Below the pieces are notes generated by a model. The model had not been told where the DNA came from, did no database searches, and saw nothing but the letters and a program-made list of their open reading frames with translations. From NCBI GenBank assembly GCA_964016885.1, contig OZ024741.1, forward strand, positions 173,600,001 to 173,664,000: a DNA stretch of 64,000 nucleotides, read 5' to 3'. Positions 4,355-13,300 of the stretch are shown here, piece by piece (position 1 is the first letter of the stretch; the number at the start of each line of letters is the position of its first letter). The DNA comes from Eledone cirrhosa. Taxonomy: Eukaryota. A program made the position numbers and the translations under genes.

Positions 4355-7300
4355 CTGAAAGAGACAAAGATTATAGTGGAATTAAAAGTTAAAATCTTAG
4401 ACAAAACTGCTATCAAATAAATATATTCTCCTATTCAATTAACATCGCTCATAGCTCGGAATATGTTCCACCCTTTTAATACTAACCCATCTTGTTCTAT
4501 GATACAAAACTGCCTGTTTTAAAGAGCTCATACTTATATTAAAACCTTCCATCATAATTTTTTGTAAGAACATTTTATTAAGTTATGTCTCAGATGCCAG
4601 TTTAATAATTGTTTCTTCTTTGAAGGGAAGGGGAAAGTTTACTAAACTGACCCCAGCACATAGCTGGTATTTTATTTTATCATCCTTATAAGGATGAAAG
4701 GTAAAACTAACCTTAGTGGGATTTGAACTCAGAACATAAACTTTATGCCATAAAGTATGTTATCCAATGCTCTACTGATACTGCTAATCCACTGTCCTAA
4801 GACTAGCTCAATAATGAGAATGTTAGCCATATTACTAAATCATTGCAAATTTTTGATTATTTCAAAATTACTTCAAAATCATTGAGTAAATGAAAGAAAA
4901 AAATCACAAACCTACATGAAGTATTTATATTTATCTAAAAAAATTCCATTGTAACTTTAAGTTATGTTCCATACACCAAATTAATAATTCTTTCTAACAT
5001 TGGCACAAATCCAGCAATTTGCAGATTAGAGGAAAGTCCACTATTCAGGTATGACACCAGAAATGACTGCATAGACGGGAGTGGGGATACTCACAAACCC
5101 CTCTGCTGTCAGAATGTGTTATGGACTGGATCCTGTTAGAAGGTATGATTTGCCTCTTGAAGCTTGAGCTGAAAGATAGGTCTCTGGGGGTGGTGCAAGT
5201 TTAAGCACCAAACAAGGAGTCCGAATACAGATCCTTCCTTGAAGTCACTGCAACATTAGATGTAGTTAAGACTGAGTCATATCTTGATGGGCAACTTCAA
5301 TGCACATGTTGGCATTGACCACCTGACATGGAAAGGAGTGATTAGAAGGAATGCCAACCCTGATCTAAATACGAATGGAGAGGCCTTACTAGACTTCTGT
5401 TCTAGCAATGGACTCTATATTATGAACACCTTCTGCCCCCACGACCCTCTCAAGAATAAGTAGGCAAATAAAAAAAAAGAAGAGGAAAGTCAATTATATC
5501 AACCCCAGTACTTAAGTGATATTTTATTTTAACTAACAGAGAAGGATGAAAGGCAAAGTTGACCTCATTGAAATTTGAACTCAGAATGTAGAAAGTCATA
5601 ACTAAATACTGCAAAACATGTTTTGTGATACCCTACTGATACTGTCAATCCACTGCCCTAAACACCAAATTAATAATAAAAAAATTAGTTATCGTACTAA
5701 ATCCCACTAAATCTTTGATTATTTTCAAAATCATTTGAAAAACATAAGTGATTTTCACTAGGAATATGGTAATGAAAGAGTTAAACTAACCATTCATGTC
5801 AATATATACAAGATTGGAGAAGATGAGTGCCATACCACCTGGTGGAGGCCAAACTATACTTTCAACCATCACAGGCAGTATAGGTTTTCGTAGAATGTCA
5901 GCTAAACTCAGTTCTCGGTTGCAGAGGTGAGATATAACATACTTTGGTGTAACACAGGCCAATATAATCTAAAATGAGATAATATAGAAAATATTTTCTG
6001 AAATATCAATCGTTTGAAATATCTGTTAGATACGCAGTGACTAACAACAGAATGTTTTAAGTCTGCGTGTCTGACATATATGCGTAGCTTGTGAATAAAA
6101 AAATTCAAGGGGTTTCACTGGCCATGGTGATCCCTGGCAAACATCTTTTGTAATGTATCGTCTTATTGGCTAATTTCATCGTCTTATTGGCTAATAAACC
6201 AATGAGAGTAATTGTTTCTCAAAAGCATCCGCCACTTTGTTTGCACGTTTATTTATCGTTTTGCTTTCGAATCTTCCTCCTGTATTTCGTCGTTTATCAT
6301 CAAAATATTTTTCTCGTTTTGGTAAGTTATATTGTTAATTTATATATGATTTTTTAAATTTATATTAACTATTTTTTTTTCAGTTCGTTTTAACAGGCTT
6401 ATAATATTGGTTGTATCATATTTACTTGTATATTTGTCCATATTATTGTTCGTTTTATGTTAGATTATTTTATTATTATTATGTTAGATTATTTTTTTAT
6501 TATTATGTTCGTCTATGTGTATGTAATATTTAATTTTTATTAATTCAACTATAACAATTATTATGTAAAATATATTTATTTAATATTGATTGTTTTTTGT
6601 AGTTGTTTATATTAAAAGTCTGAAAATATTTTTATACATCTTACAATAATATTTATAAGATCCTTTATAAAATAACAATTATATAATCTAATTACATTAC
6701 AACGACAATTTATTATTAATATATATCATGTTTAACTAGAGTTATTACAAGCATTGCCTTAAAAAAATATTAAACTAGACCTGAAAAATGCGCAAGCTCA
6801 AAAGAGCCACAGAATGTTATAATAAACCTTCAAAAGTGTGGGACTAGAGTTGTTGCTCAAAAATATTGTAATCATTATCTATCGTACACGCTGTGGTATC
6901 CTTTTATAAAAAAGAGACTCGTAACGAACTCAAGACGACACAAATTTAAAATATAGAATTCGGTTTAAATGCATTTCGTATTAATCATTACTAAACATCT
7001 AATATGAGATATTGAACATTAGCTTAAATAATTATCGTGTCGTCTTGAGTTCGTTATGAGTCTCCTTTTTATAAAAGGATGCCACAGAGTGTACGATAGA
7101 TAATGATTATGATTACAATATTTTTGAGCAACAACTCTAGTCCCACACTTTTGAAGGTTTATTATAACATTCTGTGGCTCTTTTGAGCTTGCACATTTTT
7201 CAGGTCTAGTATATATATACATAATTGTTTCTACTTTAGGCACAAGGCCAGCAATTATCCAGTGCATTACTGGTACTTTATTTTATCGACCCCGTAAGGA

Positions 7301-10300: not shown

Positions 10301-13300
10301 GAACTGGGTGAGGAGTTTAGTTTGGTGCAACTGGGTGTCGGCGTGTCCGGTGGCTGTGAGGGAGCCTCTCATGCAATCAGGCAGTTCTTCAACAGCTGCC
10401 CATCGGTACCGGCATCCAGGGACTCCAGGCACCTCATTGTCAAGCTTGACATGAGGAATGCCTTTAACTCTTTACGCCGGGATCATCTGCTCGAGGCCTG
10501 CTTCAGCCGAACCCCCTCTGCCTACCCGCTGGCCTACCTGTCATATGGAGCCCCGAGCATGCTCCTAGCTGCTGATACGGTCATACCCTCGGCTACTGGG
10601 GTCCAACAGGGTGACTCTTTGGGACCCCTCCTGTTCGCCCTTGGTATTGAGCACAACGCACGGAGTATCACGGATCTCACAACGTTTGGTATCTGGATGA
10701 TGCTACGTTGGGCGGGCCCGTACGGATGGTCTGCCAAGACCTTCAATCGGTGGTTCCTGCCCTGGCGGGAATCGGCCTCCAGGTCAACTCGGTGAAGTCG
10801 GAGGTGGTGAACGTCAGCCTCGATGCTGCGAGCCTTGCAGCCTCCATCTTGGACGTGCGGTCCATTCTCCGCCAGGTTCAGGTGACCCCCAAAGAGGATG
10901 TCATCATCCTCGGGACACCGATCCACCCACCGGCTATCCGCTCCACCATCAGGTCCAGGCTTCAACAGCTCCAGACTCTCACGAGCCGATTGGGTTTGAT
11001 TGACGGCCACCCAGCTCTCTTTCTGCTGAGGAACTGCTTCGCCATGCCGAAGCTCCTCTATACACTCCGCAGCGCTCCATGCTACACCCAGACATCTCTC
11101 CTCGCTGACCCTGATACTTGTATCCGAGCAGCAGCCGAGGGGATATGCAACGTCAGTTTGACAACATAGGGTGGCAACAGGCCACTTTACCAGTCAGGTA
11201 TGGCGGCCTAGGCCTCCGATCCCCGATCTCACTAGCTTTGCCGGCGTATCTTTCGTCGGTAACCTCGTGCCGCGTCCTCGTCAGCAGGGTTCTTCAAAAC
11301 ACAACAGAACCCTCTGTGTTCAGAGAACGTGAGGCCGCCTGTGAGACGTGGGACCGGCTGGGACTTAGCCCAGTAGACGTCCCTCCTCCTTCTTCCCCTG
11401 TTGACGTCAAGTCCCCCCAATGCACTTGGGATGCCATCCAGTGCAGCCTGGCCTCAGACAGGCTCACGCGCCAGCTCAACCAGCACTGCCTTGCTTGTTT
11501 TCGTGTGGCCTCCAAACCCCACAGTGGTGGCTGGCTCCATGCTCTGCCCTCCTTCTTCACTGGCACGCAGCTAGACAACCATAGCCTGCGAATTGGCGTT
11601 TCCCTGAGGCTCGGCCTCCGGATCTGCCAGCCACAGCAATGTCGCTGCGGTTCCACCGTGGACTCTTTCGGCCTCCACCCGCTTTCCTATCGCCACAGTG
11701 CCAGCCGCATTCTACGCCATGCTGCCCTTAACGAGGTTATTAAGCATGGCTTGGATGCTGCAGGCTTCCCTTCCCAGCTCGAGCCGGTGGGGCTGGATCG
11801 AGGGGACGGCAAAAAGCCAGATGGCATGACCATCTTCCCGTTCCGCAATGGCAAACCCCTCGTCTGGGATGCCGCTTGCACCGACACTTTCTGCAGCCGC
11901 AACCTGGTGCAGTCTGTGACTGACCCAGGTTCTGCTGCATGTTGGGCTGAGGGGGCCAAACTCCTCAAATACCGGTCGCTCTCCGACAGGTTTGCGGTCG
12001 TTCCCCTGGCAGTGGAAACTTCTGGTGTCCTCGGCCCCAGGGCTACCTCCTTACTCACCACCATAGGTGCTGAGCTGGCCAGCCGCAGGTGTGAGCCCTG
12101 CGAGTTGGAGTGGCTTTTCCAGTGTGTCTCCCTTGCCATCCTCCGGGGAAACGCCTTCTCCATTCTGTCCGCTGGGGCTGTGGGTGGGCCCCATCGCATA
12201 CCAATACATTAGTTAAATACCATTCTTTCATCGTTACAACTTATATCCACATTAATGACGTATTATCTTTGATGTCTCTGTAAATAATAGATATCTTCAT
12301 TAGTTGACAGATTATTGGGAACATTTGTAGTAAAGTCTTAATTTTTTAATGTGATGCAATCATAGAGATGTTTTATATTTTCAAGAACATCTTGCTAATG
12401 ATATTTCATGTGGTATAGGATATTAAGAGTTACATTGACCCTAGTATTTGACTGGTACTTTACTTTGAACTGAAATTTAATATTGCTGTATAGTCTGCAA
12501 AGAGAAAATGTAAAAGCTTCCACATGTAAACAGAACATCAACAGTATCCACCTCCCTAGAAAACTTTCAAAGGCCACAGGCAATATTTCTACCTTACAAT
12601 TACGAATGCCATGTTCGATCCTGTTATAAAGTTGGTCACCTCCTCCCATCTGACCAATATCCACCCAACAGGATATACCAGCTCTTTCTAGTCTATCCCA
12701 AAGAGCCTTTACTGCATCTTGACTGTCCCACTGGTAACTGATGAATACTTGTGGTGAACGTGGTTGTTCTGAAATAAACAAAAATATAAGTATTTAAATA
12801 TATATATTCTTCGGTTAGCTTTCCCCTGTGTTGTTTACTTGTCTCACTCGCTTTACGCGTTTTAATTGTCCTAATAACTTATTTTAGTTATTATTGCACC
12901 AACGTGAGGTATATGATTTTTAATGCAATGAAATACCAATGACCGTTGGCAAATCACTGATGAGGGACTCATTTTATAACATGTTATCCATGTGCAACCA
13001 TGCAGTATTCTTCTCCCCATATTTTTCACATATATTTACCTAAACTGCGATTCTGTTTTTCTCTCTCTCTCTCTCTTACTGCTCCCTCGTTCTCTCTGTT
13101 TCTCTTACTTTCTTTCGTCCCTTCTGTCATGTCAGTTAACACTTTCTCTCTACTGACCTCTTCCTCGCACTTCCACTCACTCACTCACTGTTTCTCCCCT
13201 TCTCACTTCCCCCCATTCGCTGCGAAAACGATTTTCCTTCTTTCTTGCATCGGATTCATCGCGAAAGGTCTATTTCTTACTCGCTCATATATTCACCCAG

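Follow-up and report, generated by a model that had tools for sequence, protein, structure and literature searches.

The 64,000-nucleotide stretch of the Eledone cirrhosa genome analysed here (OZ024741.1, positions 173,600,001-173,664,000; hereafter the window, to whose positions all genomic coordinates refer) is AT-rich animal DNA laden with repeats, and its minus strand holds an intact octopod gene encoding a protein with COR, Death and TIR domains. Searches with orthologous proteins (tblastn) place 13 exons of this gene in the window, running from 57695 down to 3984. All of the acceptors are AG and the 12 internal donors are GT, and the exons join into a single open frame for a partial protein of 737 residues that is identical to its Octopus bimaculoides counterpart (P0004) at 656 of 732 positions. 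A pseudogene is ruled out by this run of 13 canonically spliced exons in one open frame. An earlier note on this DNA had assigned a TIR domain with a potentially catalytic glutamate to positions 5791-12768, and the domain itself is well founded. As a single coding unit, however, that span is ruled out, since 6,624 nucleotides (nt) of it are intron and 354 of its 6,978 nt are coding. The coding part consists of two exons, 12768-12593 (176 nt) and 5968-5791 (178 nt), which join in frame across a GT-AG intron of 6,624 nt (5969-12592) containing repeats and a broken retroelement, and which match consecutive halves of the Pfam TIR_2 profile (positions 1-52, E = 5.5e-12, and 54-109, E = 7.8e-6). At 105 of 110 positions the resulting TIR domain is the same as that of the O. 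bimaculoides protein. The first of the two exons encodes strand A with the peptide VFISYQW (12748-12728), helix A, strand B, the BB loop ([11 protein letters not shown]) and helix B; the second encodes strand C, helix C with the glutamate ([11 protein letters not shown], 5932-5900), strand D, the WPP motif and strand E. Both peptides on which the note relied are present, though each has an exon of its own and both are read from the minus strand. The glutamate codon, GAA, was placed correctly at 5912-5914, provided that the minus strand is read (5914-5912; the plus strand is TTC there), and it specifies residue 574 of the partial protein, equivalent to E1106 in P0004.

The remaining exons, all on the same strand, fill in the rest of the COR-Death-TIR order. 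The first in-window coding exon (57552-57695) covers the end of the Roc region and the start of COR-A, which continues through 51736-51945 and 49890-50048 and ends within 47862-47991, an exon that also extends beyond it. Two further exons belong to the COR region (39315-39472 and 31793-31894), and two encode a stretch rich in Cys and His that follows COR (29835-30014 and 21096-21168). The Death domain is split between 18829-18987, which also encodes the preceding linker, and 17356-17529. Downstream of the TIR exons, the last coding exon (3984-4354) supplies the end of the TIR domain (helix E), a poorly conserved linker, the C-terminal tail and the stop codon. Within the Cys/His-rich stretch, C861, C863, C867, H870, C875, C880, H882, C889 and C897 (P0004 numbering) are invariant, and it is possibly a metal-binding module that has no Pfam match. 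Searches with five orthologues (tblastn) found no credible further upstream exon inside the window. Orthologues start with Neuralized and Roc, so we place the corresponding exons beyond the window; for Roc, the demonstration comes from the orthologues.

The identity of the gene is clearest from these relatives. Used as a query, the first TIR exon gave 32 proteins among the 35 candidates returned, the nearest of them from octopods and 1,264 and 1,302 residues long. Pfam assigns octopod orthologues the order Neuralized, Roc, COR-A, Death and TIR_2, with Roc followed by COR-A, whose exons lie inside the window; in P0004, the Death domain (958-1026) and TIR_2 (1036-1146) are likewise both encoded within it. 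The named orthologues belong to cephalopods, bivalves, gastropods, a chiton, annelids and nemerteans, and further ones (10 proteins looked up) to starfish, amphioxus, spiders, a tick and a centipede. Vertebrates and insects are missing among the named matches, no search having been aimed at their absence. Additional unnamed orthologues of 1,273-1,289 residues sit on contigs of 4-6 kb and are therefore probably spliced transcripts, suggesting that relatives express the gene. Conservation relative to the scallop protein (P0013) is highest in the TIR domain (83 of 110 positions), compared with 52 of 80 in the Death domain and 190 of 406 in the COR region. The same Neuralized-Roc-COR-Death-TIR architecture has been noted for Strigamia maritima and Crassostrea gigas (PMC5094078), and the same domains appear in the list of a Fig. 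6 legend for Aplysia (PMC9334734). In their accessible parts, these two papers list domains only and give no function, analysis of the glutamate or C-terminal tail. Judged by sequence, the gene is the octopod orthologue of the Strigamia and Crassostrea proteins; the Strigamia protein (T1IR33) has the same architecture, and its TIR domain is identical to that of the octopod gene at 59 of 110 positions. It may also fall within one of the ecTIR-DC families of Gerdol et al. (2017), known here through papers that cite them, and the accessible portions of PMC8195603, PMC2575513 and PMC4346834 contain nothing on this gene.

The Roc-COR tandem ties the protein to the Roco proteins (LRRK2, DAPK1 and bacterial Roc-COR proteins), an affinity that is reinforced by profile matches to the structures of bacterial Roco proteins and LRRK2. 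In DAPK1, too, COR is followed by a Death domain. The octopod orthologues retain the P-loop and the D-x-x-G motif of the GTPase. The canonical form of the G4 motif is T-H-x-D; among the 33 orthologues with a match, 20 have T-H-x-N and 8 have T-H-x-D. Besides this frequent replacement of the G4 Asp by Asn, the family differs from other Roco proteins in having no kinase or leucine-rich repeats by Pfam, a TIR domain as its putative effector, and a prenylation motif.

That motif lies at the very end of the protein, which reads C-G-A-C-I-V-L-stop (Cys-x-x-Cys-Ile-Val-Leu, 3987-4007), a CaaX sequence in which X is Leu and a second Cys stands upstream. Defining orthologues by their COR region gave 49 proteins, and 41 of these end in CaaX (X is Leu in 35, Ile in 4 and Val in 2), a count that includes isoforms and close relatives, so that its rows are not independent. 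Every one of the 41 carries another Cys just upstream, as compared with a background Cys frequency of 0.02, and several of the eight orthologues that end differently are short or named as partial. The tail has been kept even though the linker preceding it is not conserved. CaaX sequences ending in Leu direct geranylgeranylation by geranylgeranyl transferase I and membrane anchoring, and the protein is thus predicted to be tethered to the membrane through a prenylated C-terminus. The tail had escaped the earlier note, and in the literature that we found, in which subscription papers are poorly covered, there is neither a mention of it nor a functional study of this Roco-Death-TIR family; what we found on Roco proteins with TIR domains amounts to catalogues of domains.

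The question raised by the note was whether the helix-C glutamate marks the TIR domain as an enzyme that cleaves nicotinamide adenine dinucleotide (NAD+). A profile built from 35 family TIRs and compared with sequences in the PDB aligns this residue with the catalytic Glu of AbTir (DWTNYEL) and with the Glu of BtTir, TcpB, PdTIR and Cat1, the stretch from strand B to helix C being ungapped. These five bacterial NADase TIRs are the closest solved sequences (E = 2.7e-14 to 1.3e-8), and the G-D-x-L motif is in register with them as well. Cat1, a TIR that forms filaments and degrades NAD (PMC12162218), is the best match (E = 2.7e-14), whereas SARM1 scores 2.6e-8 and the TIRs of TLRs score 2.8e-5 or weaker. 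The family BB loop lines up with G-D-S-L of AbTir, the Gly of which is required for activity, and E208 and W204 of AbTir correspond to the SARM1 site, W204 being equivalent to W638 (10.1101/2022.05.07.491051). All 46 orthologues that cover helix C keep the Glu (the other three lack that stretch), as do 182 of 184 family TIR domains scoring at least 80 bits and 40 of 49 weaker domains. The pocket-adjacent motifs F-x-S-Y, W-x-D, G-D/E-x-L of the BB loop and WPP vary little or not at all. Gln stands at the Glu site in a few divergent tandem copies that retain the other motifs, which argues that the Glu is not simply structural.

Structure prediction is consistent with this picture. In the AlphaFold model of the P0004 TIR domain (predicted local distance difference test score 91.6), the Glu (residue 73) lies in the helix spanning residues 68-79, and the model superimposes on the SARM1 TIR with Z = 16.9 and a root-mean-square deviation of 2.5 over 127 residues; a model of Death and TIR together (predicted template modelling score 0.55) added nothing. 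The structural alignment with SARM1 that the note had proposed thus bears out the fold, while the equivalence of the Glu to SARM1 E642 is drawn indirectly, through AbTir E208. With SARM1 the domain shares this fold, the helix-C Glu, and the F-x-S-Y and W-P motifs. It differs from it in having 19% sequence identity, neither ARM nor SAM domains (SARM1 being ARM-SAM-SAM-TIR), and Leu where SARM1 has W638; clustering in the octopod protein would come instead from Roc-COR, the Death domain and the lipid anchor. A Gly-rich loop after strand E, G-x-G-G-H-G-x-x-G (4354-4320), does not vary across the aligned orthologues, and most tandem-TIR relatives lack it; it is modelled with low confidence and may be a lid or an interface.

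The SxWCxxE motif of NAD+-cleaving TIRs, to which the note had appealed, is only partly preserved. The sequence here is S-H-L-C-N-R-E, in which the Glu is kept but Leu (5926-5924) replaces the Trp four residues before it, a position referred to below as E-4 and fixed by the profile and the orthologue alignment. The 46 orthologues show ten residue types at E-4 (Leu in 18, His in 13, Ser in 4, Asn in 3, Ile and Tyr in 2 each, and Thr, Ala, Val and Trp in 1 each), so that an aromatic Trp or Tyr is found in 3 of 46; His is also common at E-5. Across the high-scoring family domains, E-4 is Asn in 127 of 184. With its Leu, the Eledone protein lacks the WxxxE signature of the cyclases. By contrast, Trp occupies E-4 in all five of the bacterial NADase TIRs named above, whose partner domains also differ. 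In the Manik survey, the cyclising TIRs, most of them bacterial, have Trp, Tyr or Phe at E-4 in 12 of 12 cases, and Ala at this position shifts the product to linear ADP-ribose (ADPR), replacement often lowering activity (10.1101/2022.05.07.491051). The suggestion that this TIR makes signals of the cyclic ADP-ribose (cADPR) type is weakened by this comparison. We take the missing Trp to count against a cADPR-type signal and somewhat against any activity, but not against hydrolysis.

The observations described thus far (gene structure, domain order, register and conservation of the Glu, missing Trp and CaaX sequence) are, taken jointly, virtually certain. As to what they amount to, we lean tentatively, and at somewhat less than even chances, towards a TIR domain that is a membrane-anchored, clustering-dependent NAD+ hydrolase releasing mainly linear ADPR and nicotinamide, not a cyclic signal. 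According to this model, geranylgeranylation of the CaaL tail, possibly joined by another lipid on the Cys upstream of it, would concentrate the protein on a membrane. A ligand bound by Neuralized, or the nucleotide state of Roc-COR, would then gather copies, aided by Death-domain contacts. The clustered TIRs would build head-to-tail composite active sites in which the helix-C Glu cleaves NAD+, and since no aromatic residue stands at E-4, the ADPR would be hydrolysed rather than cyclised. The output could be a local loss of NAD+, or ADPR acting in a stress, immune or cell-death pathway.

A number of points weigh against the hydrolase model, and the first group of them concerns how little the Glu says by itself. 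It is one of 24 invariant positions among 110, so its invariance is not special. The residue is found in >70% of all TIRs and in >90% of the TIRs of TLR1/2/6/10, for which the authors suggest a role beyond catalysis (PMC7075850), and most non-TLR animal TIRs keep it (10.64898/2026.04.20.719644, a 2026 preprint). When 61 animal TIRs chosen for this Glu were expressed in E. coli, 12 were active and 49 had no detected activity; the figure of 12 is a lower bound, as isolated domains were used, three isomers were measured, and the authors say that activity may have been missed (10.64898/2026.04.20.719644). In the same preprint, TLR2, IL-1R9 and IL-1R10 keep the Glu and showed no activity, with its side chain out of the pocket. 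The caveat attached to the original proposal, that the Glu is necessary yet insufficient, was right: a helix-C Glu is by itself ordinary, the common state of TIR domains. The idea of an NADase gains from a Glu that is in catalytic register, on helix C of a confident model and invariant among orthologues, but the Glu alone barely separates an enzyme from a scaffold. Nor does the fold help. The top match to the TIR model is Hydra TRR-2 (Z = 18.3), in which Thr takes the place of the Glu, and MyD88 (Z = 16.4) ties with SARM1; with SARM1, SPARTA, MyD88 and plant TIRs all falling within about 1 Z unit, we rejected fold ranking as a test of enzyme versus adaptor. AbTir and SARM1, finally, are less active once the Trp is lost, and L6 and ROQ1 are then inactive (10.1101/2022.05.07.491051).

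The protein could instead be a non-catalytic scaffold, in essence a lipid-anchored, MyD88-like Death-TIR adaptor that nucleates complexes and keeps its Glu for folding or as a binding surface, as in TLR2. We regard this as a serious possibility, only a little less likely than the hydrolase. The Death domain directly before the TIR domain is the adaptor layout of MyD88, in the sister Death-TIR-TIR family a sea-urchin protein bears the source label 'MyD88-like protein L1' (a name rather than a test), and an adaptor would readily accommodate the missing aromatic at E-4, the tie in the fold comparison and the many inactive Glu-bearing animal TIRs. What speaks for catalysis over scaffolding is the company that the Glu keeps. 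The BB loop, [11 protein letters not shown], has no Pro and no R-D-x-x-P-G, the box 2 of MyD88, and every other pocket motif is conserved. In MyD88 and TIRAP, the Glu is present in <10% of sequences (PMC7075850), unlike here, and the large N-terminal Neuralized-Roc-COR part and the CaaX tail set the protein further apart from MyD88. Sequence places the family closer to the bacterial NADase TIRs and to SARM1 than to the TLRs, and its Atlas feature matches include ThsB-like clusters. The protein is an orthologue of neither SARM1 nor MyD88.

If the TIR domain is an enzyme, its product need not be the one that we favour. Most animal TIRs that were active in the E. coli screen, including mollusc, rotifer, echinoderm and lancelet proteins, yielded canonical cADPR but did not deplete NAD+ (10.64898/2026.04.20.719644), an outcome that also runs counter to a hydrolase and that fits a signal synthase producing canonical cADPR or 2'/3'-cADPR at a low rate. 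A ring is available at E-4 in 16 of 46 orthologues if His is counted along with Tyr and Trp, and this ring, or the His common at E-5, could substitute for the Trp. We nonetheless consider a signal synthase unlikely, given the unbroken aromatic precedent among the surveyed cyclases, the Leu of the Eledone protein, the variety of residues that orthologues tolerate at E-4 and the prevalence of Asn there in the wider family. An enzyme with another outcome can also be imagined, one that carries out base exchange, forms an ADPR conjugate (His-ADPR-like or N7-cADPR) or cleaves a different nucleotide. Products of this kind are known from bacteria and plants and fall outside the isomers measured in the screen (10.64898/2026.04.20.719644), and the family-specific invariants (the Trp of SYQW, a Cys in strand B and the Gly-rich loop that follows strand E) could give the pocket another shape. 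With no positive evidence for such chemistry and no partner effector identified, this seems quite improbable to us.

Returning to the hydrolase model, its weakest step is gating by Roc. Two full-length spider orthologues match none of three GTPase-motif patterns, yet they keep the Glu and the CaaX tail, and they appear to have lost recognisable GTPase motifs; together with the T-H-x-N form of G4 in 20 of 33 orthologues, this is what makes the step weak. In favour of the model, the screen shows that invertebrate TIRs outside the TLRs can have activity, and the domain abbreviations in the legend of its active-TIR figure include Roc and COR, though Neuralized and Death are not among them (10.64898/2026.04.20.719644).

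Alongside the single-TIR proteins stands a sister invertebrate family with the order Death-TIR-TIR, which is large and often has several genes per species (P0001, P0002, P0033-P0062, P0195-P0295). Its TIRs, including those of the S. purpuratus protein with the MyD88-like label, are about 45-59% identical to the ones described here, share their motifs and keep the Glu (in 135 of 147 and 143 of 147 proteins for the two TIR copies, the remainder being unresolved or Gln). They differ in being present as two TIRs per protein, with no Roc-COR by Pfam and multiple copies per species, and in having mostly Asn at E-4. A further point in common is a Cys at -4, counted from the C-terminus, in 124 of the 147 proteins. 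The matches of bacterial type include multi-TIR-WD40 proteins (P0128 and similar) in which the TIR occurs as many as seven times, one of them labelled Candidatus Parabeggiatoa. In a tree of 61 hand-picked rows, which contains no SARM1, AbTir or TLR outgroup and does not resolve origin, the animal family TIRs are set apart by a long branch from these bacterial multi-TIR matches. A bolder proposal, which we think rather doubtful, is that the two animal forms make up an ancient bilaterian family of prenylated Death-TIR NADases, not encountered among the vertebrate or insect matches, in which Roco-switched single-TIR proteins and expanded tandem-TIR proteins have a common lipid anchor and a Trp-less site and would cut NAD+ at membranes when clustered.

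The introns and flanks of the gene contain the remains of several mobile elements. The retroelement in the TIR intron (9935-12212, plus strand) is a frameshifted element of the type without long terminal repeats, with a reverse transcriptase match (E = 2.9e-6) and a GC content of about 59% versus 35% around it. The same intron holds a near-perfect palindrome of 440 nt (6771-7213), with arms of 109 nt (97%) and 73 nt (95%), that resembles a miniature inverted-repeat transposon, and a further intronic stretch (26836-29767) is a tandem array of a 43-nt unit in 34 copies plus a degenerate second block. Other remains are found at 707-1183 (minus strand), 14442-15572, 33516-34442 and 36624-37070 (all plus strand) and 48921-49235 (minus strand); these five comprise three reverse transcriptase pieces, an open reading frame for a PHD finger and a weak DDE_3 match.

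What the locus offers is a real, intact and conserved gene whose TIR domain is a candidate enzyme, one that is testable and not implausible. The gene around the glutamate is more useful than the glutamate: the invertebrate Roco-Death-TIR protein that it encodes evolves slowly and carries a prenylation motif that is conserved. If its TIR domain cuts NAD+, a GTPase module of the LRRK2/DAPK type would be tied to NAD metabolism at membranes, and the family would offer a natural case for testing both the rule by which the helix-C Trp decides between a cyclic and a linear product and whether animal TIR catalysis beyond SARM1 has a physiological role. Were the bolder proposal also true, the prenylated Death-TIR NADases would be a second widespread NAD-consuming TIR system in animals beside SARM1, gated by a GTPase rather than by nicotinamide mononucleotide.

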